This document shows positions 1 to 20,511 of a stretch of DNA of 64,000 bases, piece after piece. Position 1 is the stretch's first letter, and each line of letters starts with the position of its first letter. The notes beneath the pieces are model-generated. The model had not been told where the DNA came from, ran no database searches, and worked only from the letters and a program-made list of their open reading frames with translations. A program made the translations under genes and the position numbers. Origin of the DNA: an uncultured Anaerolineales bacterium (GTDB lineage Bacteria > Chloroflexota > Anaerolineae > UBA7937 > JACPPX01); NCBI GenBank assembly GCA_964348195.1, contig CAYGBX010000001.1:15148-79147 (forward strand), written 5' to 3'.

Positions 1-1835
1 GCGCCGAGCCAATCCGCAGGCTCCTCGCCCTCGACGGGCGTGGCGTAGGCCGCGCTTGCCGGGTCGAGTCCGGACTCGCCATCCTCCACGACGACCCAGG
101 CCATCGCACCCTCTAGGGTCGGCTCATCGGACCAGCCGCCGGGAGGCGAAGCATCCACGTAGACGCTGGCAGAGTAGGGTTCCGAGGCGTTACCGGCGGC
201 ATCCTGGAACTGCACGAAGACTTGATGCGGCCCTTCTACCTCGAAGACCCACTCTTTGGCCTCGGCGAAGGGCTCCCAATCTGAGAAGGTTTCCCCATCG
301 GAACTGAAGCGCATGGCAGCCACTCCGCTCCCTGCGTCCTCCGCCACGAGGGCGAGTCCCGCCGTGAGGGTGTCGATGAACCCCGAACCGTCGCCCACGG
401 CCAGGCTCCCGGTGGGGCCGGCGTTGTCGGTGACCACCGTGCAGCTCGACTCGGAGGTGCGTCCGCCGGCGCCATGGGCAACCGCCTGTAGTGTGTGCTC
501 GCCTTCTTGGGTCGAGGCAGTGTCCCACTCCCAAGTCAGCTCCTGGCCGCCTGCCTCGGCGACGAGCTCCCCATCCAGATGCAGCTCAAGACGCTCCACA
601 CTGGGGCTGCTGCTGGAAACAGAAACGGTGGCGGTCCCCACCAGCACCTCCCCCTCGCCCGGGCAGGCGAGGTCCAGGCGCGGGTCGTGGCCCAAGAGCT
701 TCTGCCACGCCAAGTCTCGGTAGCTGACCAGCCGGTCGTAGGCCAGCCGACCTGGGCAGGTCGTGTACAGTACGTCGCGGTGTCCAAGGATGTTGGGGAG
801 TTCCACGTCGTGGAACTCAGAAGTGGCAAGGGGGTGGATTCCAAAGCGGTCCGACAGCCAGGAGACGAGCTCGGTGAGAGCCCGCTCCATCTCCACTGGG
901 ACGTCCGCCTGAGAGAAGTCTCCCAGGAGGGCGACTCCGATGCTCCCGTGGTTGAACTGGAGGGCGTGGGAGCCAACGACCCCGTCGCCCCCCTTTCGGC
1001 CCTCGTAGATGTTGCCGGCGAAGTCAATCAGGTAGTTGTAGCCGATGTCGCCCCAACCCTGGGTCACGGTGTGGTAGTAGAAGACCGCGCGGACACCGGC
1101 GGCGGGGTCCTCGGCGAAGTTTCGGGTGGCGGTGTGGTGCAGGATGATCTTCTCGGCCGGCTCCACCTGCGGGACCAGCGTGACCAGGTCCTCGCGGGCC
1201 CCCCAGCCGGCGCGTGAGATGATCTTCGGCCGCGGCACTCCCTCGGCCACGCCCGCCGCCTGGATCGAGGCCTGCGCCTCCTCAATGGTGGGTCCGGGCT
1301 GGGTTGAGATGAGATACAGGGTGACCTCTTCGAGGATCGGCACCTCAGATCCATCGGTGGTGCTGAACAGGGCCCGGTACTGGACGAACCGGGACGGCGC
1401 CACGAAGACGAGGCCTCCTTGGAATCCCTGGCCCGACTCGAGGGTGGCGTCGGCATCGAGGAGGACCTCCGTCCATTCGCTCCAGGACTCCCCATCATCG
1501 CCCGCGCGCACCTCAAAGGAGAGACTGCCCGCCGCGGGGACGACCGCTTCCCACCGGCTCCCCACCGCGTCAAACGTCCGGGAGGCCCGGCGCACGGGCG
1601 AGGTGTACATCCCGAAACCGGCGGTGGGATCCAGACGAATCTCCCCTCCTGCCTCGTCGGACAGCTCCACTCCCTCGGCCTCTCCTTCGGCGAAGTCGCC
1701 CGCAGTCGTCTGGGTCCAGGCCTCAACAGGCGGTCCCACTCGACGCACCGAGAAGAGCTGTTCCGCGTCTGGGATCACGCTCATGAGGACCAATGCCCAG
1801 AGCGTCAAGATGAGTGCGGTCAGTGTCTTCTTCAT
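1..1835 (-). CDS. N-acetylmuramoyl-L-alanine amidase (Amidase_2/PGRP domain) with signal peptide and long C-terminal extension; partial, continues past window start
   Basis: Manual minus-strand translation from ATG (revcomp of 1833-1835), SD GGAGGG 5 nt upstream: MKKTLTALILTLWALVLMSV... then ILHHTATRNF, GWGDIGYNYLIDFAGNIYEGRKGG, HALQFNHGSIGVALLGDF, GHRDVLYTTCPG (classic Amidase_2 zinc-amidase motifs). Open frame runs to position 1, so it is absent from the ORF track (no stop in window). The plus-strand ORFs 495-1217, 1126-1923 and 1419-2069 are antisense artefacts of it. Confidence 0.75.
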   Translation of the reverse strand, partial: MKKTLTALILTLWALVLMSVIPDAEQLFSVRRVGPPVEAWTQTTAGDFAEGEAEGVELSDEAGGEIRLDPTAGFGMYTSPVRRASRTFDAVGSRWEAVVPAAGSLSFEVRAGDDGESWSEWTEVLLDADATLESGQGFQGGLVFVAPSRFVQYRALFSTTDGSEVPILEEVTLYLISTQPGPTIEEAQASIQAAGVAEGVPRPKIISRAGWGAREDLVTLVPQVEPAEKIILHHTATRNFAEDPAAGVRAVFYYHTVTQGWGDIGYNYLIDFAGNIYEGRKGGDGVVGSHALQFNHGSIGVALLGDFSQADVPVEMERALTELVSWLSDRFGIHPLATSEFHDVELPNILGHRDVLYTTCPGRLAYDRLVSYRDLAWQKLLGHDPRLDLACPGEGEVLVGTATVSVSSSSPSVERLELHLDGELVAEAGGQELTWEWDTASTQEGEHTLQAVAHGAGGRTSESSCTVVTDNAGPTGSLAVGDGSGFIDTLTAGLALVAEDAGSGVAAMRFSSDGETFSDWEPFAEAKEWVFEVEGPHQVFVQFQDAAGNASEPYSASVYVDASPPGGWSDEPTLEGAMAWVVVEDGESGLDPASAAYATPVEGEEPADWLG

Positions 1836-1838
1836 CGC

Positions 1839-2300
1839 CTATCCCTCCGCGATGCGGGTGATTTGCGAAGGCCGGGGCCAAGGAAGCCTTTCGGCTATCG
1901 CCTCGGCCTCCCGCGCGATCTGAGCGTCCAGCTCCTGCCAGAGGAGCGGTTCCCAGATCTCGATGCGGTCGCCGATCCCCACCAGGACGGCCTCGTCTGC
2001 TATGCGTGCATAGGAGAGGAGGGTCTCAGGAACGAGAAGCCCGCCCTCCGGATCCAATCTTCCCACTGAGGCCGCGGCGTGGAGATGCCTCGCCAGATCC
2101 CTCGCTCCCCGCCGCTCGAGTTGCAGCGCCCCGCTGAGGATCGCCGCCCAGGCCTCCCAGCCGGTTCGAGGCTGGAGCCACAAGCAGCGGTCAATGCCCT
2201 TGCCCAGGACCCAGCCCGGGGCCAGCTCGGGCCACCAGGCTCCAGGCACCTGGAGGCGTCCCTTCCGGTCCAACGGCACCGAGTGGCTTCCCAGCAACAT
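1839..2300 (-). CDS. mraZ: Transcriptional regulator MraZ
   Basis: 153 aa; two MraZ half-repeats: LDRKGRLQVP and VGIGDRIEIWEP (cf. E. coli NLDSKGRLSVP / VGQFNKFELWD). The start overlaps the stop of the upstream gene (TGATG). Confidence 0.8.
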   Translation of the reverse strand: MLLGSHSVPLDRKGRLQVPGAWWPELAPGWVLGKGIDRCLWLQPRTGWEAWAAILSGALQLERRGARDLARHLHAAASVGRLDPEGGLLVPETLLSYARIADEAVLVGIGDRIEIWEPLLWQELDAQIAREAEAIAERLPWPRPSQITRIAEG

Positions 2301-2875
2301 CAGTTTCCGTCCGTCTCGCCCGGATCGTGTCCGGCCTCGGGCTTCATATCCTGTGTCAGGTAGTGGATACGGATCTCCCGCAGCTCCGACTTCAACAGGT
2401 CCAGGCTGTGCTCGGTCTGGGAGATGAGCGTGCTGGCATCTCTCTGGGCCGATCGGATCAGCTCCTGGGCGCGCGCCTCCCCCTGCTGGACTATGGCCTT
2501 CGACCGAATCTCAGCCATCTCGACCAGTCGGCTGTCCTCCACCAGCGCCTCGGCCTGCCGACTCGCTTCGGAGGCGATGCTCCGGGCCTCGCTCCGCGCT
2601 CCAGCGAGGATCTCGTCCCGTTCCTGAAGGACCTTCCTGGCACGTACCACGGCCCCCGGCAGAGAGCCCCTTAGCCGGCCGATCAGGCGAAGACCGGCTT
2701 GGCGGTTCACCCAGGCTCCACCCATCCGCGGCAGCGTTCGGCCGGCGGCCAGGATTGCCTCCAGCCGATCCAGATACTCGATCGGGTCGGACCCTGACGG
2801 CGGACCGTCGTCCCGCGGCTCGGCGGCCGTGATAGCGGCGATCTTCTCCCTAAGCTCCATCAGCTCTCCTCCCAA
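2300..2875 (-). CDS. Hypothetical coiled-coil protein (E/R/A-rich; ATP-synthase-b / DivIVA-like low-complexity helix)
   Basis: 191-aa ORF with a strong coiled-coil-like composition (ARSEARSIASEASRQAEALVEDSRLVEMAEIRSKAIVQQGEARAQELIRS). Translationally coupled to mraZ. No specific family recognised. Confidence 0.5.
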   Translation of the reverse strand: MGGELMELREKIAAITAAEPRDDGPPSGSDPIEYLDRLEAILAAGRTLPRMGGAWVNRQAGLRLIGRLRGSLPGAVVRARKVLQERDEILAGARSEARSIASEASRQAEALVEDSRLVEMAEIRSKAIVQQGEARAQELIRSAQRDASTLISQTEHSLDLLKSELREIRIHYLTQDMKPEAGHDPGETDGN

Positions 2876-4221
2876 CTCGAGAACTTGCGGCCTTGCCTCA
2901 CCATGCGGTCCAAGATTCGTCGCGTGGACTCCGCGTCGTCCCCTGCGATCCGTTCCACCCGGCAGCCCCGCGCCACGAGCTCCTCCTCTGTGTCGGCGCT
3001 CACGCCTCTCTCATCCCCGATGATCGTGACGTGTCGGGCCAGTCCCGCCTCATCCGGCCGGAAGCCGCAGGCGGGCTGGAAGGTCCGTATGTATTCGGTT
3101 GCCATTCGCCAGTACCAATCTGAGACCCCGAAGTCCCAGGTCGGGAACAGGACGTAGTGCTGGATGGATCCGTTCGACGAAGCGGGCAGGCTCGAAGTCT
3201 CCTGCGGTTGGCGGGCGGCAGGCACAACCTCCGGCAATGGCCTTGGCGCCGGTGGACGCTGGATCGGCTGTGGAGCCGGCTCCGGGTCCGGCGTGCTGGC
3301 AGGTGGGTCGGAGGGAACCTGGGCCTGCTTCGCCAACATGCGGATCGCCGGCACAGGCGTGCCGTCTTCAGCTTCGAGAGGGCCCAGGTTGACGCACAGC
3401 AGGTATCGCGGCAGCGATCCACGTCTCGCCAGGAGCGCCGCCTCCGCCGCTCTCTGCATCGGCCCCCCCGCCGGCGGATAGCTCGCCACCGCCACCACAG
3501 GAAGCGAACGGCCAAGCCGCTCCTGAATGATCTCGTCGTACCATGCGAAGATCCGAAATCCCCGGTGGTCTTCGCTTTCCGCAGGGGTGTGGTACGGGCG
3601 CGCCAGCGGCCAGCGGCTCGGCCCGCCCGCCCCCCAACTCAGGTCCCGGTCGAGAGAAGTCACCGTAGCGACCCCGATCGACGCCAGGAGGGCGGGGTCT
3701 TCCTCCACCAGGATGTCCAGAGCTTCGGCTAGGAACGCTGTGTCCCAGTAGTCGCCTCCCGGCTGCATCGGTGGCAGGAGCGGGATCAGTCCCGCCTCCA
3801 CCGCCCGCGCAAGCGAAGGGCGAAGGATCCCCACAAACCGGCGCACCAGTTCCGGCTCGCTCCACTGAGCCCGCTCCCACGCTCGGGCCAGGTTCGGATA
3901 CCGGTAGAGGTACAGGTACCGACCCCCGGCCTCGGCGTAGGCAGAGAGCGCCGTTCGCAGAGCCTTCTGATCGATTCCGGAGACGGGCGTGCGATCCATC
4001 CCCAGAACAGGCTCGATACCCTGCGTCGACAGCGCCGCCACCAGGTCAAAGGGGATCGAGTGGTCCAGCGAGGCTTCCACTGTCACCCATCCGATCCCGG
4101 CCTCGGCCCAGTCTCGGGTGCGGTCCTCGAACCGACCGTCGCTGCCCGCCAGATCTCCGGCCTTCACAAGGAAGCCGATGCGACTTTCGGTTCTAGGTAG
4201 GGGGAAGGATCTCATCTCCAT
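2860..4221 (-). CDS. Hypothetical protein, two domains joined by a Pro-rich linker
   Basis: 453 aa. N-terminal ~300 aa is a globular domain of unknown function. Linker PSDPPASTPDPEPAPQPIQRPPAPRPLP. C-terminal ~110 aa is HYVLFPTWDFGVSDWYWRMATEYIRTF...TIIGDERGVS...RGCRVERIAGD. The start lies 9 nt after the stop of the caspase-like gene. Confidence 0.55.
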   Translation of the reverse strand: MEMRSFPLPRTESRIGFLVKAGDLAGSDGRFEDRTRDWAEAGIGWVTVEASLDHSIPFDLVAALSTQGIEPVLGMDRTPVSGIDQKALRTALSAYAEAGGRYLYLYRYPNLARAWERAQWSEPELVRRFVGILRPSLARAVEAGLIPLLPPMQPGGDYWDTAFLAEALDILVEEDPALLASIGVATVTSLDRDLSWGAGGPSRWPLARPYHTPAESEDHRGFRIFAWYDEIIQERLGRSLPVVAVASYPPAGGPMQRAAEAALLARRGSLPRYLLCVNLGPLEAEDGTPVPAIRMLAKQAQVPSDPPASTPDPEPAPQPIQRPPAPRPLPEVVPAARQPQETSSLPASSNGSIQHYVLFPTWDFGVSDWYWRMATEYIRTFQPACGFRPDEAGLARHVTIIGDERGVSADTEEELVARGCRVERIAGDDAESTRRILDRMVRQGRKFSSWEES

Positions 4222-4230
4222 CGCTTGCCT

Positions 4231-6534
4231 CTACCTCGACACCACCAGCTTCCCGATCCGACCGTCCCCGTCCGAGGTCAGGACGGCTCGATGGCGCAGG
4301 CTTCTCCTCCGAGGGTCCACTTCCAGCGGAGTGCGATGCTCAGCGCTGGCCACCCAGCGCTCCGTAGGCGGACTGCTGTCAGCGGCCGATCCCGTGCGGA
4401 CTGGGCATATGGGACAATCGCCACAGCCACAGGCCGAAACTTTCTTCACGGACGCCTTCGCGGACGCGAGAGCCGGGACTTGGCCGCTGAGGTACGACTG
4501 CAGGGTCCGCCGGATTGACGTAGGTGCCTCTGCCTCCTCCGACGAACCCCCGTGGCCGCATATCACGGCCGGACACTGCACTGGGTCGCTGTCCCCCATT
4601 CCGCGACGTCGGATCCGGTGCGTTGCAGACAATCCCAGGCTGGGATCTCCGTACAGGACGAACGTGAGGAGAGTCTTCTGGTCCTCCGCATCCAGGTATC
4701 CCTGCTCGGCACCGGCCTGCTCGATCAGGCCCAGCTTGGCCCGACGCAACGCCTCGCCGAGGGCGAAACCTTCCCGCAGACCCAGGAACAGGTTCACGGC
4801 GAGGAGGTCCGCGCCCACCAGTGGCGGGGCCAACGAGCCGTAGGCCATTCCGGTGGATCCGATGAAGCCACGGGCTCCGGCCGCCAGAAACGCCAGCGCC
4901 ACAGAATCCTGGATCCCTCGGTCTGCGATCTCGGCTCCGTAGCATGCCTCGCTGAAGACCACCGCCTCCGTCGGATCGGCCCAACTCAGGTTCAGAGGCG
5001 TCAGCGCGATGGGAAAGACGGGAGCGTCCTCCTCATCGCTCGAGCCGTGTCCGTACCAATAGGGGCTCCCCGCCACCCCGTGCAGGTTGAAGTAGGCGAG
5101 CGCGGGAATCCGATCGTATGCCTCGAGGAACTCCTGGTCCGAGAAGGGCGGGGACACCTCAAGTCCCCGGCCGTCGCCAAGGGCCTGCATCACGGCTGAG
5201 GAGGCATCCCGCCAGACTCCCGCCGAGACCGCAAGCGGCTGGGAGCCGTTTCCAGAGAAGAGCCGGCCCAGCCTCCCGCCGCGGCGTCGGCGCTTCCGGT
5301 GGGCGGTGGCGGTGCGAACGATGAATTCGGTCAGAGCCTCCGAGGAACCCAGGTCGGGGATCCGTCCCACGGCACGATCGGGAAGCAGGTAGTTCCCCGT
5401 CCGCGAAGCGTAGGGAGCGTCGGTGAAGACCTCCTCGTCCCCATCGTCTGAGGGATTGGGGATTCTGAAGAAGGGCACGATCCCGTCGCCACCCACCAGG
5501 AGGAGATAGTCGGCGCGCTGGCCGGTCTCCCCCAGCCGGACCTCCAGGTCTGCCAGCAGCTTGGCAATCGAGGCAGGATCCTCCGGATCGGCCACGGACA
5601 GGCCGAGCTCGCCCAGCGACTGAGGATCGTCCACCAGGACCAGGTGGGCGTCGATGCCAGAGCCTCTACGAGCGGCAGCGGCCAGGGCCGAGAGCCCCTC
5701 GGTGATCGCCATCCGCCCTTCCTCGCCGAACGCCGCCCCGAGCCGCGCGCGGCTCGACACGATCGCCAGGCTCGAGCTCAGCTCCCCGCCGCCAGCCCCG
5801 TTGCCCAAGGGGGAGATTTCGGGCTCCGCGATCTCGGGCAGGATCGGCAGATCTGGATGCTCCTCCACTGGCACTGAGGCCGGTTCGGGCGAGGGAACGC
5901 GCTCCGCCGGTTCAGGCTCCACTGCCCCGGCCGCACCATCACGGTCCCCACCCTGGACGGCCGGCTCGACCTCTTCCGCAGGACTCACGGTGGGAGCGGT
6001 CGCCAGGTACTCGGGGTACAGCCCCTCCGCAACGAAGAGCGAACGGGCGACCTCCATGCTGGGATCCAGCTCCCGAGCCGCGTGGAACCGCTTCGCTCCC
6101 TCGATCCAATCACCGGCTCGCAACTTGAGGTCTCCCAGCATCAGTTGGACCCGAACCAGGTTGGGGTGTGAGGCAGCGAGCGAGGCCAACACCGGCTCCA
6201 CCTCGGTCCCCCGCCCCTCCCGCCAGGCGACCTCGGCCTGGGCCAGTCCCTCGGGCACCGACATCGAGCCCCCGGATCCCTCCACGAGCCTCTGGAGCGC
6301 CTCCACGGCCTTGGGGTTCGTCGGATCCGTCGCCACAACGGCCTGATAGTGTCTGGTTGCCTCCGCCCCGCGGCCGGACTCCTCCAGGATCCGCCCCAGG
6401 GCCAAGCGAGCCGCCTGATGCCGGGGAAACCGACGTATCAGCGCCACGAGAAGTGGCTCCGCGGCTTCCGGCTGTCCCTGCTCGTGCCGCCGCAGGGCCC
6501 GCTCCACGATGCCTCCCGTCTCCACGGCGCGCAT
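4231..6534 (-). CDS. TPR-repeat protein with C-terminal caspase-like (clan CD, CHAT-type) cysteine peptidase domain and Cys-rich tail
   Basis: 767 aa. N-terminal TPRs (ALIRRFPRHQAARLALGRILEESGRGAEATRHYQAVVATDPTNPKAVEAL...). Protease core LLLVGGDGIVPF...YFNLHGVAGSPYWYGHG (catalytic His) then ~45 aa on VVFSEACYGAEI (caspase QACRG-like Cys pentapeptide). C-terminal CPAVICGHGG...CGCGDCPICP zinc-ribbon-like. The start ATG directly abuts the stop of the STAND gene (TAGATG). Confidence 0.8.
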   Translation of the reverse strand: MRAVETGGIVERALRRHEQGQPEAAEPLLVALIRRFPRHQAARLALGRILEESGRGAEATRHYQAVVATDPTNPKAVEALQRLVEGSGGSMSVPEGLAQAEVAWREGRGTEVEPVLASLAASHPNLVRVQLMLGDLKLRAGDWIEGAKRFHAARELDPSMEVARSLFVAEGLYPEYLATAPTVSPAEEVEPAVQGGDRDGAAGAVEPEPAERVPSPEPASVPVEEHPDLPILPEIAEPEISPLGNGAGGGELSSSLAIVSSRARLGAAFGEEGRMAITEGLSALAAAARRGSGIDAHLVLVDDPQSLGELGLSVADPEDPASIAKLLADLEVRLGETGQRADYLLLVGGDGIVPFFRIPNPSDDGDEEVFTDAPYASRTGNYLLPDRAVGRIPDLGSSEALTEFIVRTATAHRKRRRRGGRLGRLFSGNGSQPLAVSAGVWRDASSAVMQALGDGRGLEVSPPFSDQEFLEAYDRIPALAYFNLHGVAGSPYWYGHGSSDEEDAPVFPIALTPLNLSWADPTEAVVFSEACYGAEIADRGIQDSVALAFLAAGARGFIGSTGMAYGSLAPPLVGADLLAVNLFLGLREGFALGEALRRAKLGLIEQAGAEQGYLDAEDQKTLLTFVLYGDPSLGLSATHRIRRRGMGDSDPVQCPAVICGHGGSSEEAEAPTSIRRTLQSYLSGQVPALASAKASVKKVSACGCGDCPICPVRTGSAADSSPPTERWVASAEHRTPLEVDPRRRSLRHRAVLTSDGDGRIGKLVVSR

Positions 6535-9500
6535 CTAGCTTCCCCCGCCGTGGACCCAGGCCAGCGCAGTCGTGGCGGCCAGCTGCTTGAAGGCATTTGC
6601 GTTCTTGGGATCGAGCCGCACTGCTTCGCGGAACATCTCGGCGGATTCGGAGTACTGCTTGAGCCGCTTGTAGAGGAGGCCAGCCCGGAAGTGATGGTCG
6701 GCCTCGCCGGGCTCGGTCTGACAGGCCAGCAGGAACTCTCGGAGGGCCCGGTCGTAGTTGCCTTGCTCCTCATGGGTCCTGCCCAGCTCGCTATGCGCCT
6801 GACCGCTGGCAGGGTCGAGCTCCGCCATCTTCCGGAAGTGAGCGACCGCCTTGTCCGTGTGGCCCAGCCTCCGGCACAGTGCGCCCACCTCGCTGTGGTA
6901 GGCCTTCTCCTCGGGAGCGGCACGCAGCGCCTTGTGGTAGGCCTCCAAGGCATCGTCGAAGCGATCCTGATCCAGATAGGTGCGCGCTCTCGAGATGTAG
7001 GCCGGCGCGTACTGGGGATCGCGCGAGGTGGCCTCGTCCAGGGCCTCAAGTGCGGCGTGGTAGTCGCCCTGTCGATGAAGGACCTCGGCTACCCGATGGG
7101 GATACGCCGGATCCTGGGGCTCCAGGTCGCTCGCTCGCTGGTAGTGCGCCAGGGCCTGTTCCAGGTCGCCCCGCTTCTCTTGGAGGTGGCCTAGGTGGGC
7201 GTACGAGGCCGCCTTGGCCCCGCCGAGTGAGAGCGCCTCCTCGAAGCATGCGATCGCTTCCTCGAACCGCCCCATCCCTTCCAGGGCGACGCCGAGCCCG
7301 AGCCACAGCGTCGGGTCCTGAGGCTGCGTCTCCAAAGCTCGGCGGTAGGCATCCGCCGAATCGGAATTCCGTCCCACCTCTTGGTAGGCCGCACCGAGGG
7401 CGGATCGGGCCCGTAGGTCGTTCGGGTCGAGGCGCACTGCCTCCTCCAGGTGCTCGACCGCCTTGTCCCAGCGCCGCATGTGAGACAGCGCGCTGGCAGC
7501 GGCCCTGTGAAACTCGGCTGCTCGGGGAGCCAGCTCGACCGCCTTCCGGTACTGCTCGAAGGCGGACTGATGCCGCCCGGCCCGCTCGTACAGACCGCCG
7601 AGCACCGCCCGCCATCGTGCGACGCCTGGACCGGCCGCCACAGCGCGCTCCATCGCCTCCATCGCTTCTTCGTGGTCCCCGGCGGACTCCAGCGTACCGG
7701 ACAGGGCGTGCAGGTAGCGGCCGTCGTGGTCGGATCGATCCACGGCAGCACGAAAGGCGGACAACGCGCGATCATGCTCTCCCAGAGCCTCGTGGATCCG
7801 GCCGAGCTGGTAGTGGGTCTCGGCCTCGTCTGGCGCCAGGCTGTGAGCGGCCTCCAGCTCGCGCCGGGCGTCCTCGTACCGCCCCAGCTGTCGATACACC
7901 GAGCCAAGGGCGCGCCGTCGCTCTGGTGACCCAGGCTCCAGATCCACGGACTTCTGGCAGAGCCTTTCTGCTTTGTCTCCGTCTCCCTGGGCAGCGTTCA
8001 GAAGACCCAGCTCAGAGTAGGCCTCCGCCCAATTCGGCTTGAGGTCCAATGCCGCCTGGAGCGAACCCGCGGCCTTGGCGTACCAGTGGTCAGATGCGCC
8101 ATTCTCTGACGCCTTCCCAAGGGCTCGCTCCACGGCGCCCAACCGCAAGACATAGGTGGGATCGTGCGGCGCGAGCCGACTGGCCTCGTCGTAGAGACGC
8201 TGGGCATCCTCTAGTCGACCCGCTCCCTCGTAGGCCTGGCCGAGCCGGAAGGTCGCTCGCGGATCGGTCCCCTCCTCCGTAGCGAGGGGCTCGAGAACAT
8301 GGACCGCCTCCAGGGCGCGTCCGCTCGCCAGGAGGGCCCCACCCAATGCCTCGCGGATCTGTGCATCGTGGGGGATCAGATCCAGCGCCCGCTGGTAGAA
8401 GCCCAAGGCCTGCTCAACCTGGCCCGCCTTCTCGCGCGCCCGACCCAGAAGGTAGAGAGCCTCCGGGTCCGCCGAGTCCATCTCCAGGGCACGTTCGAGG
8501 GCCACGGTCGCTTCCTCCGCGTGCTCCCGCTCCAAGAGGAGCGCGCCCAGATCGCGGTGGTGGATGGCGTCCTTGCCGTCGCAAGCCACGGCCTCCTCAA
8601 ATTGGGTGCGTGCGGCGTCCCAGCGACCCGCCTCCCGGTAGAGTTGGCCCAGCCGATGGTGCAGCGGGGCGCTGCCGGGCAGGTTGGCGATCGCGCGCTC
8701 CAGGACCGTGGCGGCCTGGGCTTCTCGACCTAGCTGGCGCTCCAGGGCAGAGAGAGCCAGATGCGGTTCGGCAGATCGCGGCTGAAGTGAGGCCGCCTTT
8801 CGATAGCTGGACCGTGCTTCCTCCAGCTTTCCCATCGCCTCCTGCAACCTGCCGAGACCCAGCAGAGCCTCCACAGGCTCACTGTCAAGGGCCACAGCCG
8901 TGGCTAGTGCTTCCTCAGCTTCCTCTCGGCGGCCCAAAGCGCTGAGAAGGTTTCCGCGGGCTAGGTGGACCGTGGACTCCTCGGGAGCGATGCGCTCGGC
9001 CTTGGCCACCTCGTCGAGAGCCGCGGCAAGGTCGCCCCGCTCCTCCAGGATCCGCGCCAGGTTCAGGTGAGCCTGTGGATCGTCCGAGTCCGTGCTGCGG
9101 GCTCGCTCCAACGAGGCCTCCGCCTCGTCCACGCGACCCATCTGGTCCAGAACTCGGCTCATTCGACCCAGGTGACTGGGGTCCAGGAAGAGCGACTCCC
9201 CTGCCCCCTGGTAGGCCTCCAAGGCCTCGGGGTGCCACCCGTTGCTCTCGAACCCCTCTCCCAGGGTCTCTCGGAGTGCGGGATCGTGCGGATTCAGCGC
9301 CACCGCCTCCTCAAGTGCGGCCACGGCTTCTTCCCCGCGGCCGAGATCCAGAAGAGTCCGTCCCATCCACTGGAGATAGCGGGGCTCATCCGGCGCCTGC
9401 GCGATTGCCCGTCGGCCGGCGGAAAGCGCCTCTTCCATGCGGTCGGCCGCCTGGTACAGGTTGGCGAGTTCGAACTGGAGCTCCGCGCCGCCCTGCTTCC

Positions 9501-12500
9501 GCCCCACCGCCTCCTCCAACGCAGAAAGCGCTTCGTCGAGATCTCCCTGGGCGCGACACACTCGGGCATACCCGCGATGGTGCCTCGTGTCAGCGGGATC
9601 CAGGGACATCGCTTGCCGGTACCGCTCGCGGGCCTGCTCTGTCTCTCCCTGCTCCTCGAAGGCCTGGCCCAGCAGATGTTGGGCCTCGGCGTCCGAGGGA
9701 TCGGTGGCGAGTGCGCATTCCAATGCCTCCCTGGCCTCGTCCGTTTGACCGGCCCGGAGCAGAACGCGTCCCTTGCGCCGGAGATGTCCCGGCTCCTCCG
9801 GCTCCACGCGGATCGCCTCCTCGTACTCGCGCAGCGACTCCTCCAACCGACCCTCTGCCTCCAGGATCTCTCCGATCCGGGCGTGGATGGCGGCCGATCC
9901 ACCATTCCCCGCCCCGAGAGCCCTGCGCAGGGCTTCCAGGGCCTTTGTCGCATCGCCCATCTTTTGGAGCAGGGATCCCGCGGCCAGAGGAAGCTCGCCG
10001 TCGTCCGGCGCCAGCTCTATGGCACGCTGATACGCCTCCAGGGCCTCGCCGTACTCCTCTCGGCCCTCGGCGACCGCGCCCCAGAGTCGCAGAGTGAGGG
10101 CGTCGGTGGGGTCGAGCGTCAGTGTCCGCTCCAACGCGGCGCGAGCTTCGTTGAGCCGTCCCATCTGCAGGCTGACCGCTGCCAACCCCCGCTGATGAGC
10201 CGGATCCTCAGGAGCGAGACGAATGGCGCGCCGGTAGCTCCCTAGCGCCGCGTCCAGTCTTCCATCCGCCTTCTGGATCTCGCCCAGAAGTGCGTGTCCC
10301 GTCGCCAGGTCCTTCCCCAGGGAGATTGCTTCGCGAGCCGCGGCCTCCGCCTCCTCCAGACGCGACATTCGCAAGAGCAGCCTTGACAGAGCCAGCCGGT
10401 GCACAGCAGCCTCTGGATCCAGCTCGATCGCGTGACGCAGGGCCCTCAAAGCGCGCGAGCCCTCCCCCTGAGAGGCGTAGGCGATTCCCAGCTCGCGCTG
10501 GATCTCCCCCCGCTCCGGAGCGAGCCGAGCGGCTTCCTCAAGCTCTGCCGTGGCCGCGTCTCCGCGACCGAGCTCCTGAAGTCCGGCCGCCAGATGGGCG
10601 CGTATCTCCGCATTGCCCGGGTCCATGTCCCGGGCCTTCAGATAGGCTTCGACCGCCTCCTCAAGGTCGCCTCTCGCCGCGTGAATCCTCGCGTGCTCGT
10701 GGTGGACGGATGCCAGGCCTGGGCCCAGATCCAGGGCACTGGAGATGGTGGACAGCGCTTCGTCCAGCCGCTTCAGGCCACGCAGCGCCTCCGCTTCCAG
10801 CACCAGGAAGCCTGGCTCCCCGGGAGCCATCTCGCGGCCGCGACGACACCAGCCCAACGCCTCGTCAAAGCGATTGAGCACGAGATGGACCCGGGCCAGT
10901 CCCGCAAGCGGTGCCGGTCCCAAAGGATCCTGCGCGTGCGCCTGCTCCAGGGCGGCCAACGCCTCGCTGCCGCGGCCAGCCACGATCAGCGCCATTCCCA
11001 AGTGGAGATGCCCGTGGGCGTTCTCCGGCTCCAGGCGGCTCGCCTCTCGATAGGACTCTACAGCCTGGGAGGATCGGCCTTGGGCGGCGAAAACCGCTCC
11101 CTGGACGCGGTGGGCCTCAGCGAATTGCGGGGCTCCCTCCACGGCGCGCTCGGCGAACCGAGCCGCCTCATCGAGCTCCCCCTGCTCAGACAAGACCCGG
11201 GCCAAGCCAACTTGATACAGGGGCTCGTCGGGATCCTGGCCGGCGGCCTGCTCATAGGCGCCCTTCGCCTCCTCCAGCCAACCCTGGCCTTCGTAGGCCC
11301 GAGCCAGTTCGTTGAGCACCGAAGGGTCGGAGTCGTCTTGAGATCGGGCCCTCTCGAGGAACTCCCGTGCCTCTTCGAACCGGCCCATCTCGTTGAGCAC
11401 CCGACCCACACTCGCAAGGTAACGAGCTTCCTCTGCCTGCAGGGCCGCGGCGCGGCGGAAGGCCTGGAGCGCCTCGGCCATTCGCCCTTCCGCCTCGTAG
11501 GCAAGCCCAAGCTGATGGTGGGTGTCCACGTAGGCTGTGCCAGCCGCGGCCACGGCTCCTTCCAGCTCCTCCACGGCCTGGGCGTGCTGATCCATCTGCT
11601 GCAGAACCAGCCCGCGGTTGCGCCGCCGGAAGAGCTCTTCGGTGCGAACCCCGGATGGATCCTTCTCCCAGGAGCCCAGATCGAGGGACCCTTCCTCCAG
11701 GCTTCTCTCCAGTAGAATCGCGGCCGCCCGATGGCAACCCTCCTGCTTGAGAAGCCTCCCCAGCCGATAGGCGGTGGCCCCATCCACGGCGGGGCCGGAG
11801 GCGGAGAGAAGGTCGGTGACCTTGCCCACCTGGCCCTCGGGCGGCTCGTTGTCGGCAATGCTGCGGGCAGCGAGCCGGAGGGAGGCCTCGTCTCCCTTGA
11901 CGAGCAGGGCTTGAAGGTAGGCCAGAGGATCCGGAGCGAAGGCGTAGCCTTGGACGACGGCGCCCTCGGCCATGGGTTCCCTGCTGAGGGCGGCGACTCG
12001 CTCCCAGCCACCGCTTCTTCCCAGGGCCTGTCCCGCGAAGTGCTCTAGCACGAGCGGATCCAGAAACGCCACCGCCCCTCGCCCGCGCCGGACCAGAAGG
12101 CCAGTCGCCAGAATCCGCTCCAGGAGAGCACCAGCACCTCGGCCGTCCGCGGAAACCTCTTCGAAGCGCTCGAGCCAGGCCTCCCGTGGCGCGTGGTTGC
12201 GGCCCTCCGCGAGCAGGCCAACGGCAGCCGTCTCCAGCGCCGCGTCAGCCCCCTCTGGCATCTCCTGCACCAATCGCTCGACAGCGGTGGAGATCACGTC
12301 GCCCGGCCTCCACCAGCGGCGAACAGCGTCCGATTCCCGCGCCAGCTCGACCAGCGCCGACAGGAAGAGGGGGGAATGGACCAAGTTCCAGAGGTCTGGC
12401 CGCCGGCGCAGCCGCTCCTCAACCTCCTGTGCCAGAGGCCGCTCCAGCCGCTGCGCAAGGTAGCGGCGAACGTCGTCGTCGGAGAGGGGCAGGATCTCCC

Positions 12501-13071
12501 AGGTGGAGATCTCGCCCAGCCAGCGCCGATATATAGAGAAGTCCGCGCTTCGGCAGGCTACCACCGCACGCTGATCTCGGAGGGTGGTACCGACCAACCG
12601 TTCGATCTCCTCCAGAGCATAGTGGCTGGTGATGCGATCCAGGTTGTCGAGCAGCAGGGTCACGTAGCCCCGTCCGAGGAGGGAGCTGAGAGCCGAACGC
12701 TCCATGTCGGGATCGCCCAGAGAGGCGGCGATTCGCTCGCGGATGCCATCCCCTTCCTCCATGGGCGCCAGGTCCACCAGCAGAGGCACGGGACGATCCC
12801 GCTCTCCCGGCATGGCGTCCTCCGCCAAGACGGTCACCAAGTGTTCCAAGAAGACCGTCTTGCCTGCCCCCGGTCCGCCGAGCACCACGGCTCGGCCCGC
12901 ATCCAGGATCGCCCGGGTGGCGTCCGGGGCGGGACTGTCCGCGAGGGGTCGCGTCAGCCGAGGTGGGATGTAGGGGCCGCCAGCACCTCCGGAGCGCTCC
13001 TGCACCCCGGCCAGATGCCGGCGCAGGACCGCCAGGCCCGAAGGGGCGGCCCCTTCATTGCGTTCCGCCAT
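6535..13071 (-). CDS. STAND-class NTPase (NACHT/AAA-like) fused to a ~1800-aa TPR array
   Basis: 2178 aa. Walker A VVLGGPGAGKTVFLEHL, Walker B VTLLLDNLD, sensor-1-like VVACRSADF, then winged-helix-like region. From about residue 400 to the C-terminus there are uninterrupted TPRs (dozens of A-x-x-x-Y/F...A-L-x-L-x-P units). SD GGGGAGG 4 nt upstream of the ATG. No N-terminal effector domain. Confidence 0.85.
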   Translation of the reverse strand: MAERNEGAAPSGLAVLRRHLAGVQERSGGAGGPYIPPRLTRPLADSPAPDATRAILDAGRAVVLGGPGAGKTVFLEHLVTVLAEDAMPGERDRPVPLLVDLAPMEEGDGIRERIAASLGDPDMERSALSSLLGRGYVTLLLDNLDRITSHYALEEIERLVGTTLRDQRAVVACRSADFSIYRRWLGEISTWEILPLSDDDVRRYLAQRLERPLAQEVEERLRRRPDLWNLVHSPLFLSALVELARESDAVRRWWRPGDVISTAVERLVQEMPEGADAALETAAVGLLAEGRNHAPREAWLERFEEVSADGRGAGALLERILATGLLVRRGRGAVAFLDPLVLEHFAGQALGRSGGWERVAALSREPMAEGAVVQGYAFAPDPLAYLQALLVKGDEASLRLAARSIADNEPPEGQVGKVTDLLSASGPAVDGATAYRLGRLLKQEGCHRAAAILLERSLEEGSLDLGSWEKDPSGVRTEELFRRRNRGLVLQQMDQHAQAVEELEGAVAAAGTAYVDTHHQLGLAYEAEGRMAEALQAFRRAAALQAEEARYLASVGRVLNEMGRFEEAREFLERARSQDDSDPSVLNELARAYEGQGWLEEAKGAYEQAAGQDPDEPLYQVGLARVLSEQGELDEAARFAERAVEGAPQFAEAHRVQGAVFAAQGRSSQAVESYREASRLEPENAHGHLHLGMALIVAGRGSEALAALEQAHAQDPLGPAPLAGLARVHLVLNRFDEALGWCRRGREMAPGEPGFLVLEAEALRGLKRLDEALSTISSALDLGPGLASVHHEHARIHAARGDLEEAVEAYLKARDMDPGNAEIRAHLAAGLQELGRGDAATAELEEAARLAPERGEIQRELGIAYASQGEGSRALRALRHAIELDPEAAVHRLALSRLLLRMSRLEEAEAAAREAISLGKDLATGHALLGEIQKADGRLDAALGSYRRAIRLAPEDPAHQRGLAAVSLQMGRLNEARAALERTLTLDPTDALTLRLWGAVAEGREEYGEALEAYQRAIELAPDDGELPLAAGSLLQKMGDATKALEALRRALGAGNGGSAAIHARIGEILEAEGRLEESLREYEEAIRVEPEEPGHLRRKGRVLLRAGQTDEAREALECALATDPSDAEAQHLLGQAFEEQGETEQARERYRQAMSLDPADTRHHRGYARVCRAQGDLDEALSALEEAVGRKQGGAELQFELANLYQAADRMEEALSAGRRAIAQAPDEPRYLQWMGRTLLDLGRGEEAVAALEEAVALNPHDPALRETLGEGFESNGWHPEALEAYQGAGESLFLDPSHLGRMSRVLDQMGRVDEAEASLERARSTDSDDPQAHLNLARILEERGDLAAALDEVAKAERIAPEESTVHLARGNLLSALGRREEAEEALATAVALDSEPVEALLGLGRLQEAMGKLEEARSSYRKAASLQPRSAEPHLALSALERQLGREAQAATVLERAIANLPGSAPLHHRLGQLYREAGRWDAARTQFEEAVACDGKDAIHHRDLGALLLEREHAEEATVALERALEMDSADPEALYLLGRAREKAGQVEQALGFYQRALDLIPHDAQIREALGGALLASGRALEAVHVLEPLATEEGTDPRATFRLGQAYEGAGRLEDAQRLYDEASRLAPHDPTYVLRLGAVERALGKASENGASDHWYAKAAGSLQAALDLKPNWAEAYSELGLLNAAQGDGDKAERLCQKSVDLEPGSPERRRALGSVYRQLGRYEDARRELEAAHSLAPDEAETHYQLGRIHEALGEHDRALSAFRAAVDRSDHDGRYLHALSGTLESAGDHEEAMEAMERAVAAGPGVARWRAVLGGLYERAGRHQSAFEQYRKAVELAPRAAEFHRAAASALSHMRRWDKAVEHLEEAVRLDPNDLRARSALGAAYQEVGRNSDSADAYRRALETQPQDPTLWLGLGVALEGMGRFEEAIACFEEALSLGGAKAASYAHLGHLQEKRGDLEQALAHYQRASDLEPQDPAYPHRVAEVLHRQGDYHAALEALDEATSRDPQYAPAYISRARTYLDQDRFDDALEAYHKALRAAPEEKAYHSEVGALCRRLGHTDKAVAHFRKMAELDPASGQAHSELGRTHEEQGNYDRALREFLLACQTEPGEADHHFRAGLLYKRLKQYSESAEMFREAVRLDPKNANAFKQLAATTALAWVHGGGS

Positions 13072-13081
13072 GGGCCCTCCC

Positions 13082-13426
13082 CTAGAGCCCCGTGGTGAGC
13101 CAGAAGGCGACTATGCTGATGGTGACACCCGCGACCGTGAGGAAGGCACCGATACCGGCAGCGGTACGGATCAGCCGGTTGATGGCTTCCACCAGGTTGG
13201 AAGCGGAGTCGATGATTGGCGCCACGGCATCCTGCGTGACGGCCCGGCCACTGATCTTTATGGACTGAGCCGAGAGGTGCTTCATGGCGCTGTGGTACTC
13301 CTTGGACAGGATGATCCACAGACCGGAGACGGTGCAGACCACCCCGATCAGGAACAGGATCACCGCCATCCCGACCTCGAGGTCAGCGGCTGGCATTGGG
13401 ACCTCCTTTCGCGATCCGCACGGCAC
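13082..13426 (-). CDS. Small membrane protein (2 predicted TM helices), unknown function
   Basis: 114-aa ORF. Hydrophobic MAVILFLIGVVCTVSGLWIIL and GIGAFLTVAGVTISIVAFWLTTGL flank a ~60-aa soluble segment. The ORF-track start overlaps the receiver gene by 44 nt. The true start is probably internal (Met at 13396 or GTG/ATG near 13370). Confidence 0.5.
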   Translation of the reverse strand: MPCGSRKEVPMPAADLEVGMAVILFLIGVVCTVSGLWIILSKEYHSAMKHLSAQSIKISGRAVTQDAVAPIIDSASNLVEAINRLIRTAAGIGAFLTVAGVTISIVAFWLTTGL

Positions 13427-13811
13427 GGCGGACCAGCTGCTTCATCTCCTCCATCTCGAAGGGCTTGCTGACATAGGCAGAGACTCCGACGCGTTCCGCC
13501 TCCGCCTCCACATCGCTGCATCCATAGGCGGTCATGAGAATGGCCTGGGTTCTGGTCTGGAGCCCTCGGGCGGCGCGCAGCAATTGGATCCCGCTCAGGC
13601 CAGGCATCCTCAGGTCGGCGATGATCACGTCCGGCTGCCTCTCAGCTACCGCCTCCAGCGCGTCCTCGCCTGAATGGCGAACCTCAACCTCGTACCCCGG
13701 CTCCTCCTCCAGCGCGCTGCGCAGGAAGTGGGCCAGGGTTCGCTCGTCCTCAGCGATGAGGATTCGGGAGGTTCGTGCGTCTACCCTTTTCTGCGTGATC
13801 GCGGTCGCCAC
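13383..13811 (-). CDS. Single-domain response regulator (CheY-like receiver)
   Basis: 142 aa. RILIAEDE, phospho-acceptor IIADLRMPG, LMTAYG, SKPF. GTG start with GAGG SD 8 nt upstream. First gene downstream of the sigma-54 promoters. Confidence 0.8.
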   Translation of the reverse strand: MATAITQKRVDARTSRILIAEDERTLAHFLRSALEEEPGYEVEVRHSGEDALEAVAERQPDVIIADLRMPGLSGIQLLRAARGLQTRTQAILMTAYGCSDVEAEAERVGVSAYVSKPFEMEEMKQLVRRAVRIAKGGPNASR

Positions 13812-13836
13812 TCAAGTTCCTCTACATGAGATACTC

Positions 13837-13852
13837 GCAAGATCCGTGCCAG
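13837..13852 (-). promoter_or_regulatory. Sigma-54 (RpoN) -24/-12 promoter, proximal copy (P2), transcribing toward 13811
   Basis: Minus-strand reading of 13837-13852 = CTGGCACGGATCTTGC. TGGCACG-N4-TTGC matches consensus spacing and bases exactly. -12 C at ~13837, predicted TSS ~13825, 14 nt before the GTG start. Confidence 0.6.
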
Positions 13853-13896
13853 CCCCCTGCCGACCGAGATGGGGCGGGCTCCACGATTGGGGAGCA

Positions 13897-13912
13897 GCAA
13901 GATCCGTGCCTG
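13897..13912 (-). promoter_or_regulatory. Sigma-54 -24/-12 promoter, distal copy (P1)
   Basis: Minus-strand reading = CAGGCACGGATCTTGCT. Identical 14-nt core GGCACGGATCTTGC exactly 60 bp upstream of P2, -12 TTGCT. Confidence 0.55.
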
Positions 13913-14000: not shown

Positions 14001-14035
14001 ACTGGGGGGACTTCCCCAACTGGGGGAAATCCCCC
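14001..14035. promoter_or_regulatory. Candidate enhancer (UAS) for the adjacent sigma-54 activator: two adjacent imperfect dyads
   Basis: ACTGGGGGGACTTCCCC (14001-14017) and ACTGGGGGAAATCCCCC (14019-14035). Both are TGGGGG-N2-3-CCCCCA dyads, 18 bp centre to centre, ~100-130 bp upstream of the sigma-54 -24 elements and ~150 bp from the end of the bEBP gene. Confidence 0.35.
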
Positions 14036-14187: not shown

Positions 14188-15561
14188 CTACTTCAGGCCG
14201 TACTTCGAAAGGGAGTAGCGGAGGACGTCGCGGGTGACGCCCAGGAGGCGGGCAGCCTCGCTCTGGTTTCCGCCGGTCCGCTCCAGCGCCTGGGCGATCA
14301 TCCGCCTTTCGAACTCGGCGACCGTCCCCTTCAGATCGATGCCCGCATCGTCGAGGGTCGCCTCAAGCGACGGGGCCAGAGGCAAGAAGGCCCTGTCGGT
14401 AACGATCTCTCCGGGCAGGTGAGCCGGCTGAATCTCATCGCCGTCGCAGAGGATGACCGCGCGCTCCATCACGTTTCTCAGCTCTCGGACGTTGCCGGGC
14501 CAGTCGTACCTGCGAAGGAGCTCCATCGCCTCCTCTGAGACCCCGGTCACGTTCTTTCCCATGGCCTCTGCGTACTCGGCCAGGAAAGTCAAGACCATAG
14601 GGTCGACATCGCCCGGTCGGTCGCGAAGCGGCGGCACCTCGATCACGACCACCCCAAGCCGGTAGTAGAGATCCTCGCGAAACTCCCCCGAATCCATGGC
14701 GGCTCTCAGGTCCCGGTTGCTGGCGGAAACGACCCGGATGTCCACCTGGATGTCACGCTCGCCCCCTACCCGACGGAAGGACTCGGTCTCCAGCACCCGG
14801 AGCAGCTTGGCCTGCAGATCCGGCCTCATACTCCCGATCTCGTCCAGAAACAGTGTCCCGCCGTCGGCCGTCTCCAGCAGCCCTTTCTTCTGTCGCTTGG
14901 CGTCGGTGAAGGCGCCGCGTTCGTGGCCGAACAGCTCGCTCTCAAGGAGGGTGTCCGGGATCGCCGCGCAGTTGATGGCCACAAAGGGACCATCGGCGCG
15001 GTCGCTCTGACGATAGAGGGCGCGGGCGATGACCTCCTTGCCCGTGCCGCTTTCCCCCTGGATCAGCACGCTGGCCTTGCTGGCCGCAAGCCGCGCCACG
15101 AGCCTCTCTATCTCTCGCATAGCCGGGCTGTCACCGATGACCCAGGGACGATCCCCATCGCCCCGGCCCCGCAGCCGGGCAAGCTCTTCGCGCAGGGCAC
15201 GCGACTCCAGGGCGCGCGCGATCGTCAGCTTGAGATCATCAAGATCGGGGGGCTTCTCAAGATAGTCATAGACCTTGAGCCGCATGGCCTCCACGGCGCT
15301 GCCAACCGATCCGTACCCTGTCATCATGATCACCGGCAATTCGGCATCGCCGGCACGGATGGCCCGGAGCACCTCCATCCCCTCCACATCGGGCAGCTTG
15401 AGGTCGAGGAGGACCAGGTCGATCTCGCGCTGTCCTACGGCCTCCAATCCCTCCCGGCCCGTCCCCGCCGCGACTACCTCGTAGCCCTCCTCGAGGAGGG
15501 ACTCCCTGAGGAAATGGCTGAGGGTGGACTCGTCCTCGACGATCAGGATGGTGCGACTCAC
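14188..15561 (-). CDS. Sigma-54-dependent transcriptional activator (NtrC/Fis family bEBP: REC + AAA+ sigma-54 interaction + Fis HTH)
   Basis: 457 aa. Receiver ILIVEDE...LVLLDLKLPDVEG. AAA+ VLIQGESGTGKE, GAFTDA (GAFTGA variant), ELFGHERGAFTDA, VRELRN. C-terminal Fis-type HTH QSEAARLLGVTRDVLRYSL. Confidence 0.9.
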   Translation of the reverse strand: MSRTILIVEDESTLSHFLRESLLEEGYEVVAAGTGREGLEAVGQREIDLVLLDLKLPDVEGMEVLRAIRAGDAELPVIMMTGYGSVGSAVEAMRLKVYDYLEKPPDLDDLKLTIARALESRALREELARLRGRGDGDRPWVIGDSPAMREIERLVARLAASKASVLIQGESGTGKEVIARALYRQSDRADGPFVAINCAAIPDTLLESELFGHERGAFTDAKRQKKGLLETADGGTLFLDEIGSMRPDLQAKLLRVLETESFRRVGGERDIQVDIRVVSASNRDLRAAMDSGEFREDLYYRLGVVVIEVPPLRDRPGDVDPMVLTFLAEYAEAMGKNVTGVSEEAMELLRRYDWPGNVRELRNVMERAVILCDGDEIQPAHLPGEIVTDRAFLPLAPSLEATLDDAGIDLKGTVAEFERRMIAQALERTGGNQSEAARLLGVTRDVLRYSLSKYGLK

Positions 15562-15567
15562 CTTACC

Positions 15568-17625: not shown

Positions 17626-17626
17626 C

Positions 17627-20503: not shown

Positions 20504-20511
20504 TCCTCTCC

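Follow-up and report, generated by a model that had tools for sequence, protein, structure and literature searches.

A tetratricopeptide-repeat protein of Anaerolineae with a predicted gingipain-lineage (C25) protease domain, encoded beside a giant repeat protein in a sigma-54 operon

A 64,000-nucleotide stretch of DNA from an uncultured Anaerolineales bacterium (Chloroflexota; GenBank assembly GCA_964348195.1, contig CAYGBX010000001.1, positions 15,148 to 79,147 of the forward strand; hereafter the window) carries on its minus strand a gene for a 767-residue protein that combines tetratricopeptide repeats (TPRs) with a protease domain. Its sequence and a structural model identify this protein as a predicted cysteine endopeptidase of clan CD that belongs to the gingipain (C25) lineage. 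In Anaerolineae the gene invariably lies behind a gene for a giant TPR protein, and both genes are part of a sigma-54 operon that in relatives usually continues to ftsZ. A first-pass annotation of the same DNA had described a TPR-caspase-like protease of the CHAT family with a QACRG-like pentapeptide and a zinc-ribbon tail. The open reading frame (ORF), the motifs, the Cys-rich tail and the abutting junction with the upstream gene are all present in the sequence as it described them, the family proves to be a different one, and that account missed the sigma-54 operon, shared across the class, and its link to mraZ and ftsZ. Taken together, the evidence leads us to favour, at somewhat better than even chances, a reading in which the TPR-C25 protease and its giant partner, expressed from the sigma-54 operon, perform scaffold-controlled intracellular proteolysis.

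The family assignment is carried by a profile match, by the predicted fold and by its topology. The Pfam model Peptidase_C25 (PF01364) matches residues 293–634 with an E value of 1.2e-13 (51.5 bits against a cut-off of 23), and the match covers the hidden Markov model (HMM) nearly end to end, from profile position 24 to 373 of 374. CHAT (PF12770) and Peptidase_C14 (PF00656), the families to which the protein had been provisionally referred, and the zinc-ribbon models of Pfam gave no match to the protease at E ≤ 10. Among 16 relatives compared by their domain only, 15 match C25 and one matches CHAT weakly (E 0.0033). An exhaustive HMMER search with residues 255–767 recovered 1,521 clusters at 50% identity with E ≤ 1e-3, including 375 at E ≤ 1e-30. 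Structure prediction with AlphaFold2 (AF2) was run twice. The first run, on 10 sequences, gave a predicted local distance difference test (pLDDT) score of 55.6, with the TPR part alone well modelled and the protease domain unusable; the second, on a 111-sequence alignment taken from the HMMER search, gave a pLDDT of 91 and a predicted template modelling score (pTM) of 0.94.

In the second model, whose cropped numbering equals the full numbering minus 254, the catalytic domain divides into an N-terminal subdomain (full numbering ~255–425) and a caspase-like C-terminal subdomain (~434–631). The core of the N-terminal subdomain is formed by four strands (cropped 2–6, 42–46, 89–93 and 134–138) and that of the caspase-like subdomain by six (180–184, 204–207, 225–229, 271–274, 302–306 and 371–375), followed by a C-terminal domain with strands at 402–404, 440–445, 472–482, 491–500 and 506–512 and a helix at 418–431. 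The gingipain RgpB is built from an N-terminal subdomain of four strands, a caspase-like C-terminal subdomain of six strands and an immunoglobulin superfamily (IgSF) domain (McLuskey and Mottram, PMC4357240), and the predicted order of four plus six strands and then a C-terminal beta-rich domain reproduces this build. Gingipains also head the Foldseek comparison with the PDB: RgpB (1cvr, 4ief) is matched at E ~1e-12 and Kgp (4rbm, 6i9a) at E ~2–3e-11, ahead of the TPR-CHAT protein Csx29 (8eey and others; E ~1e-5), separase (5mz6, 5u1t; E ~1e-4) and MALT1 (6h4a; E 4e-4), so that the similarity to gingipains is about seven orders of magnitude stronger than that to Csx29. PDB searches by sequence, with the whole protein and with a profile, returned TPR proteins only, and a profile search of the PDB with the protease domain alone returned nothing at E ≤ 10, placing the solved gingipains out of reach by sequence.

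Within the caspase-like subdomain, His485 (YFNLHG motif) and Cys531 (SEACYG motif) are the predicted catalytic dyad, located in the model and by conservation where clan CD enzymes put their His and Cys. Among 111 aligned relatives, 110 retain the His and 110 the Cys, 109 retain Glu529, and Gly486 never varies; the longer motifs YFNLHG and EACYG are present in 116 and 130, respectively, of 157 related proteins, and Cys531 is the sole Cys within the protease domain. In clan CD, His and then Cys occur at the C-terminal ends of strands beta3 and beta4, in His-Gly and Ala-Cys contexts (PMC4357240). His485 (cropped His231) lies two residues past strand 225–229, the third of the caspase-like sheet in the AF2 model, and Cys531 (cropped Cys277) three residues past strand 271–274, the fourth, so that His485-Gly486 and Ala530-Cys531 fit this strand-end rule in the predicted model. 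The clan CD fold and the order of His before Cys, both proposed by the first-pass annotation, are thus borne out by a model in which two consecutive sheet strands have the His and the Cys at their C-terminal ends. Two finer points of the earlier description carry less weight. EACYG shares with QACxG only the Ala-Cys pair and the trailing Gly, which makes 'QACRG-like' too generous a term. The gap of 46 residues between His485 (LHGVAG begins at residue 484) and Cys531 (SEACYG begins at residue 528), previously taken as caspase spacing, is within the clan CD range but not diagnostic, the corresponding figure being 33 in RgpB (His211/Cys244, counted on the PDB chain) and, according to PMC4357240, 42 in caspase-7 and 46 in PmC11. 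A second candidate for the catalytic His, His496 (codon at 5047–5049 on the minus strand; YWYGHGSS), was rejected, as its position is occupied by Gln in 91 of 111 relatives. The Gly-His-Gly of His496, 11 residues past His485, misleads pairwise alignment to the YTGHGS motif of RgpB.

The remainder of the protein sets it apart from the secreted members of the family. The N-terminal TPRs named in the first-pass annotation are real: residues 13–82 match Pfam TPR_19, TPR_16 and TPR_14, and residues 6–167 form helical hairpins, mostly at pLDDT 70–94 (AF2 model 1). A linker rich in Pro, Glu and Ala (14, 13 and 10, respectively, among 73 residues) separates the repeats from the catalytic domain and differs in length between homologs, which share the same TPR plus C25 architecture. 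Hydropathy and sequence inspection found no signal peptide or transmembrane segment in the protease and no N-terminal hydrophobic segment, and a TPR helix is the N-terminus of all relatives inspected. Because a signal peptide and a transmembrane segment were not found, and because of the TPR module and the NACHT-type partner described below, the protease is predicted to be an intracellular C25-like enzyme, unlike the secreted, prodomain-bearing gingipains. Existing annotation lists the relatives as 'tetratricopeptide repeat protein' or 'hypothetical'.

The C-terminal tail of about 130 residues is steady in length among relatives (median 133) and contains six of the seven Cys of the protein (531, 654, 659, 702, 704, 707 and 710). 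Neither 'zinc ribbon' nor 'regulatory', the terms applied to it earlier, is supported by the tests made here. The Cys pattern is present, and close relatives retain the arrangement C-x4-C ... C-x3-C-x-C-x3-C; on the other hand, the zinc-ribbon models do not match, three of the six Cys are kept in only ~63% of relatives, and 29 of 148 tails are free of Cys altogether. By position, C659 and C702 are each kept in 70 of the 111 relatives, C710 in 67 and C654 in 15, and C704 and C707 fall mostly in gapped alignment columns. The loop with the second Cys cluster is modelled at pLDDT 62–69. From the sequence pattern, a structural metal site in the tail of this sub-lineage is plausible.

Immediately upstream lies the gene for the giant partner, a protein of 2178 residues with a NACHT NTPase domain and a very long TPR array. 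An LLLDNLD sequence downstream of the Walker A motif, together with the repeat array, gives it the combination of Walker A, Walker B and repeats by which NACHT STAND proteins are recognised. At the junction (GGAAGC-TAG-ATG-CGC), the stop codon of the giant (6535–6537) is directly followed by the ATG of the protease (6532–6534), and the STAND neighbour of the earlier description, whose stop abuts the protease start, is a NACHT-type protein. In most related loci, a giant ORF of 1,600–2,350 codons ends a few nucleotides from the protease start, mostly with a 4-nucleotide overlap. Here the two genes share one frame with a single TAG between them, and read-through would yield a fusion of ~2,946 residues; the in-frame arrangement is probably incidental, since most relatives instead overlap by 4 nucleotides (ATGA).

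As a pairing of genes, the coupling to a STAND protein envisaged by the first-pass annotation is seen at this locus but does not extend to the family at large. A NACHT head is detectable in 22 of 62 complete orthologous giants, with Walker A intact in all of them, and Pfam found TPRs alone in two NACHT-less giants. Because the NACHT head is confined to these 22 partners, we take the conserved unit to be the giant TPR protein plus the TPR-C25 protease, with NACHT as an add-on or a module lost elsewhere.

When one genome was scanned for each species, relatives of the protease turned up in 485 species genomes, of which the best 80 are all from Anaerolineae/Chloroflexota, including Leptolinea sp. 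HRD-7 and Ornatilinea apprima. Synteny was counted over 84 related loci, with tblastn used for two neighbouring genes named here by the length of their products, p114 and p453. ftsZ lies downstream in 63 of the 84; p114 lies upstream of the giant in 58, p453 follows the protease gene, and sits between it and ftsZ, in 51, a response regulator stands at the operon head in 37 and mraZ is found downstream in 32. On the contigs of two homologs (P0007 and P0002), the same order runs on to ftsZ, LysM proteins and SpoIID, and in relatives an 842–844-residue amidase ortholog is followed by ftsZ, a 77-codon ORF, LysM proteins and SpoIID. Most related loci have a strict TGGCAC-N5-TTGCA element just ahead of the gene for the response regulator or for p114. 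Many Anaerolineaceae have a second sigma-54 element right behind the protease gene, before the p453-like gene and ftsZ (in locus L064 the elements are at 3382 and 11592); by sequence, ftsZ would be under sigma-54 control in these genomes.

In the window, the minus strand reads, in order, rpoN, two PAS/GAF histidine kinases, an NtrC-type activator, a 376-bp gap, a CheY-like regulator, p114, the NACHT-TPR giant, the TPR-C25 protease, p453, p191, MraZ and an exported Amidase_2 protein (Table 1). The kinases, both within the regulatory block (14188–21990, minus strand), are a 958-residue protein with SBP_bac_3, PAS and GAF domains and a 685-residue hybrid with receiver, GAF and PAS domains; a sensor kinase and an NtrC-type activator are conserved at the equivalent position in a related locus (L001). 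A scan of the 64-kb window for sigma-54 elements with at most one mismatch gave three matches, two of them in the 376-bp gap that precedes the CheY-like regulator gene. About 100–170 nucleotides upstream of these two elements is a near-palindromic 32-nucleotide element, GGGGGATTTCCCCCAGTTGGGGAAGTCCCCCC (window 14004–14035, minus strand), which may be an upstream activating sequence for the adjacent NtrC-type activator. Across 1800–13800, neither a sigma-70-like promoter nor, on the minus strand, a terminator-like site was found.

Several of the neighbouring products bear on where the protease might act. The small protein p114, which has a weak DUF7139 match, could tether the protease complex to the membrane or signal to it there. 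Searches of Pfam, NCBIfam, PADLOC and PDB sequences returned no match to p453 above threshold; below threshold, it has an NCBIfam S-layer SlpA match (E 0.032, 13 bits against a cut-off of 650), and it consists in part of a Pro-rich linker and a C-terminal domain of ~60 residues that weakly resembles S-layer/cell-wall-binding proteins. Both p453 and p191 are candidate division factors or protease substrates. Searched against PADLOC-DB 2.0, the protease, NACHT head, p453 and p191 all had no match at E ≤ 0.01. Because PADLOC is empty and the GC content is flat across the region (0.67–0.69), the neighbourhood is not a defence island.

Table 1. Coordinates of the TPR-C25 protease, its predicted parts and the surrounding operon, in window numbering
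Feature	Position	Strand	Basis or remark
Exported Amidase_2-type peptidoglycan amidase, 5' part of gene	1-1842	(-)	signal peptide MKKTLTALILTLWALVLMSV; gene runs past window edge
MraZ	1839-2300	(-)	Pfam MraZ, E 3.2e-16
p191, coiled-coil protein	2300-2875	(-)	weak DivIVA and Scy resemblance
p453, conserved gene, 9 nucleotides past protease stop	2860..4221	(-)	ORF
TPR-C25 protease gene	4231..6534	(-)	767 residues plus stop, ATG start (ORF list)
C-terminal alpha+beta domain, residues 640-767, placed like gingipain IgSF domain	4234..4617	(-)	AF2
Second Cys cluster, C702-x-C704-xx-C707-xx-C710	4405..4431	(-)	sequence; CGCGDCPICP from residue 702
First Cys pair, C654-x4-C659	4558..4575	(-)	sequence; CPAVICGHGG from residue 654
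Peptidase_C25-like catalytic domain, residues 255-634	4633..5772	(-)	Pfam PF01364, AF2, Foldseek
Codon of Cys531, predicted nucleophile	4942..4944	(-)	conservation and AF2 topology
Codon of His485, predicted catalytic His	5080..5082	(-)	conservation and AF2 topology
Disordered Pro/Glu/Ala-rich linker, residues 180-252	5779..5997	(-)	pLDDT 24-31 (AF2 model 1)
N-terminal TPR module, residues 1-170, about four helical hairpins	6025..6534	(-)	Pfam and AF2
Giant partner gene, 2178 residues, NACHT NTPase plus very long TPR array	6535..13071	(-)	Pfam
NACHT domain of giant, residues 62-209	12445..12888	(-)	PF05729, E 4.8e-9, 36.7 bits against cut-off 26.7
Walker A of giant, GGPGAGKT, residues 65-72	12856-12879	(-)	sequence
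p114, small protein with two predicted transmembrane helices, just upstream of giant	13082..13426	(-)	hydropathy and sequence
CheY-like single-domain response regulator, first operon gene	13383..13811	(-)	Pfam Response_reg, E 2.7e-25
Sigma-54 -24/-12 element TGGCACGGATCTTGCG	13836-13851	(-)	in 376-bp intergenic gap
Sigma-54 -24/-12 element AGGCACGGATCTTGCT	13896-13911	(-)	in 376-bp intergenic gap
NtrC-type sigma-54 activator	14188-15561	(-)	
rpoN (sigma-54)	20512-21990	(-)	

Comparison with known systems places the protease close to gingipains in fold and close to adaptor-gated proteases in organisation. The gingipains RgpB and Kgp (C25; 1CVR, 4IEF, 4RBM) are the closest structural match, with a Foldseek probability of 1.00, and have in common with the protease the His-Gly and Ala-Cys motifs behind hydrophobic strands and the SDxxY, GR and GDPS motifs; sequence identity in the Foldseek alignments is ~12–13%. 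Gingipains are secreted, Ca-stabilised, Arg/Lys-specific virulence proteases with a large N-terminal prodomain and a type IX secretion system (T9SS) C-terminal signal, whereas the protein studied here is without a signal peptide, carries TPRs and a disordered linker where gingipains have the prodomain, and is encoded in a cytoplasmic sigma-54 operon. It also differs from RgpB in its wider dyad spacing and in having no acidic residue opposite RgpB Asp163, the latter in a low-confidence hhalign alignment. At the position of the gingipain Ig-like domain, it has the conserved C-terminal domain of ~130 residues with five strands and one helix.

Csx29 of the type III-E CRISPR Craspase (8EEY, 7Y84, 8D9F) resembles the protease in its N-terminal TPRs and its clan CD protease domain and, as far as the proposed mechanism goes, in working inside the cell under the control of a very large partner, but CHAT is not matched here, the partner is a TPR/NACHT protein rather than the Cas7-11 ribonucleoprotein, and there is no CRISPR context; moreover, the protease gene shows class-wide vertical conservation, whereas Csx29 is sporadic. 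Separase (MEROPS C50) likewise couples a clan CD protease to ~1,600–2,300 residues of helical repeats, a likeness to which the genomic link with ftsZ and mraZ adds. In separase, however, repeats and protease form one polypeptide and the enzyme is known from eukaryotes only, whereas the present system comprises two genes, has gingipain as a clearly better structural match and a division link by synteny, and no securin or cohesin analogues were identified. With Apaf-1/caspase-9 and bacterial NACHT/Avs systems, the locus has in common a NACHT P-loop NTPase and repeat sensor beside a clan CD protease, and by analogy this gene pair suggests proximity-induced activation. It differs from such STAND-adaptor/caspase pairs in several respects: adaptor domains of the death-fold or effector-associated kind were not detected, PADLOC gave no match, most orthologous pairs do without the NTPase head, and the synteny is housekeeping-like. 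In its proposed function, the protease resembles adaptor-gated clan CD proteases (Csx29, caspase-9 and separase), without membership of their families.

In the mechanism that we favour, the sensor kinases and the adjacent NtrC-type activator would turn the operon on, and the protease would be co-produced with the giant by reinitiation at the TAG-ATG junction or, in relatives, at the ATGA overlap. The protease TPRs would then dock on the TPR scaffold of the giant, and nucleotide-driven assembly of the NACHT head, possibly with the CheY-like regulator, would gate the protease by proximity or allostery, much as caspase-9 is gated on Apaf-1, Csx29 on Cas7-11, and separase. Once active, the protease would cut a specific cytoplasmic target, which may belong to septation or filament remodelling because the linkage to mraZ and ftsZ is conserved. 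A bolder version would have the giant and the C25-like protease as a two-gene prokaryotic counterpart of a separase-type machine, in which sigma-54-timed cleavage licenses septation or filament fragmentation in multicellular Anaerolineae; we consider this distinctly unlikely, and, if true, it would add a new level of control by proteolysis to FtsZ-based division across the lineage.

A number of results count against scaffold-controlled proteolysis by a C25-lineage enzyme, or limit how far it can be generalised. At the level of sequence, hhalign of the protease-domain profile against RgpB spans both subdomains at an E value of 0.0018 and a probability of only 15%, with the His one column off and the Cys misaligned, and a BLOSUM62 local alignment of the protease with RgpB is not significant (62.5 against 41 ± 7.6 for shuffled sequences, maximum 69.5). 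Since one or both dyad residues are misplaced in each of these alignments, what equates the predicted dyad with that of RgpB is the match to the Pfam HMM together with fold, topology and conservation. Literature searches found no paper describing a TPR-C25 family. As for the partner, 40 of the 62 complete giants (1,600–1,850 residues; including those of cultured genera such as Leptolinea and Ornatilinea) have no P-loop motif or phmmer match to the NACHT head; NTP-driven activation is therefore not the general mechanism of the family. We infer the physical interaction between giant and protease from gene order alone. The link to ftsZ is likewise one of synteny only, and it is absent from some genomes, among them that of Leptolinea sp. 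HRD-7, in which alaS lies behind the protease gene.

The alternatives differ mainly in what the giant partner and the protease domain are taken to do. Were the pair an abortive-infection or conflict system combining STAND and protease, the NACHT-TPR protein would sense phage or damage, oligomerise and free the protease to kill or arrest the cell, in parallel with Avs/bNACHT, the TPR-CHAT Craspase and the NTP-dependent conflict systems of multicellular prokaryotes. The intact NACHT domain and Walker A, the huge TPR sensor array, the abutting genes and the resemblance of the clan CD protease to Csx29 all speak for such a system, as does a filamentous, multicellular host lineage, which is the setting considered in PMC7159879. 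That paper makes no mention of gingipain, C25 or Anaerolineae. We nevertheless regard a defence role as unlikely: the PADLOC search of the protease, NACHT head and neighbours was empty, the NTPase module is absent from most orthologous partners, and synteny is fixed over hundreds of Anaerolineae species, near mraZ, ftsZ and alaS and behind a conserved sigma-54 promoter, whereas defence systems are typically patchy and lie in variable islands; the uniform GC content of the region also speaks against such a role. A CHAT/caspase TPR protease whose pentapeptide is QACRG-like and whose zinc ribbon is regulatory, made stoichiometrically with a STAND activator and dependent on it, as first proposed, would account for the TPR plus clan CD arrangement, the order of His and Cys and the abutting stop and start codons, and can call on the one relative with a weak CHAT match and on the Cys cluster kept in close relatives. 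It is nonetheless very improbable in view of the significant C25 match and the gingipain fold set against the empty CHAT and C14 searches, the Cys-free tails, the missing zinc-ribbon match and the absence of a NACHT head from most partners.

Two further possibilities concern the chemistry of the protease domain itself. Family C25 includes the sortase-like PorU, so membership of C25 is compatible with a transpeptidase, ligase or maturation enzyme that would process or join one particular precursor, such as a division or envelope protein from a gene downstream; legumain ligases and the GPI (glycosylphosphatidylinositol) transamidase provide further clan CD analogues, and the exported peptidoglycan amidase, p453 and p191 of the operon lend the idea some substance. 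Known C25 transpeptidation is extracytoplasmic, however, whereas the protease has neither a signal peptide nor a membrane anchor, and with no recognisable substrate motif or precursor gene identified the proposal is one of pure analogy, which we judge quite improbable. At the other extreme, the domain might be a catalytically dead pseudo-protease serving as a TPR/scaffold subunit. Pseudo-protease domains exist in clan CD, for instance in separase, which is precedent rather than direct evidence, and the near-complete retention of His485, Cys531 and Glu529 alongside an invariant Gly486 is so hard to explain without catalysis that we hold this to be extremely improbable.

To our knowledge, the C25 peptidases characterised so far are secreted virulence proteases, the gingipains, and the T9SS sortase PorU. 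The protein described here would place the C25 scaffold in a new setting, intracellular, fused to TPRs and tied to a giant TPR/NACHT partner, and it represents a large unstudied family of at least 1,521 clusters at 50% identity with members in 485 species genomes. Partners with and without a NACHT head offer a natural experiment on the recruitment of STAND modules to pre-existing protease–scaffold pairs. Overall, the conserved operon, which usually runs on to ftsZ, suggests that regulated proteolysis is connected with division or development in these filamentous bacteria, a class about whose cell biology little is known.

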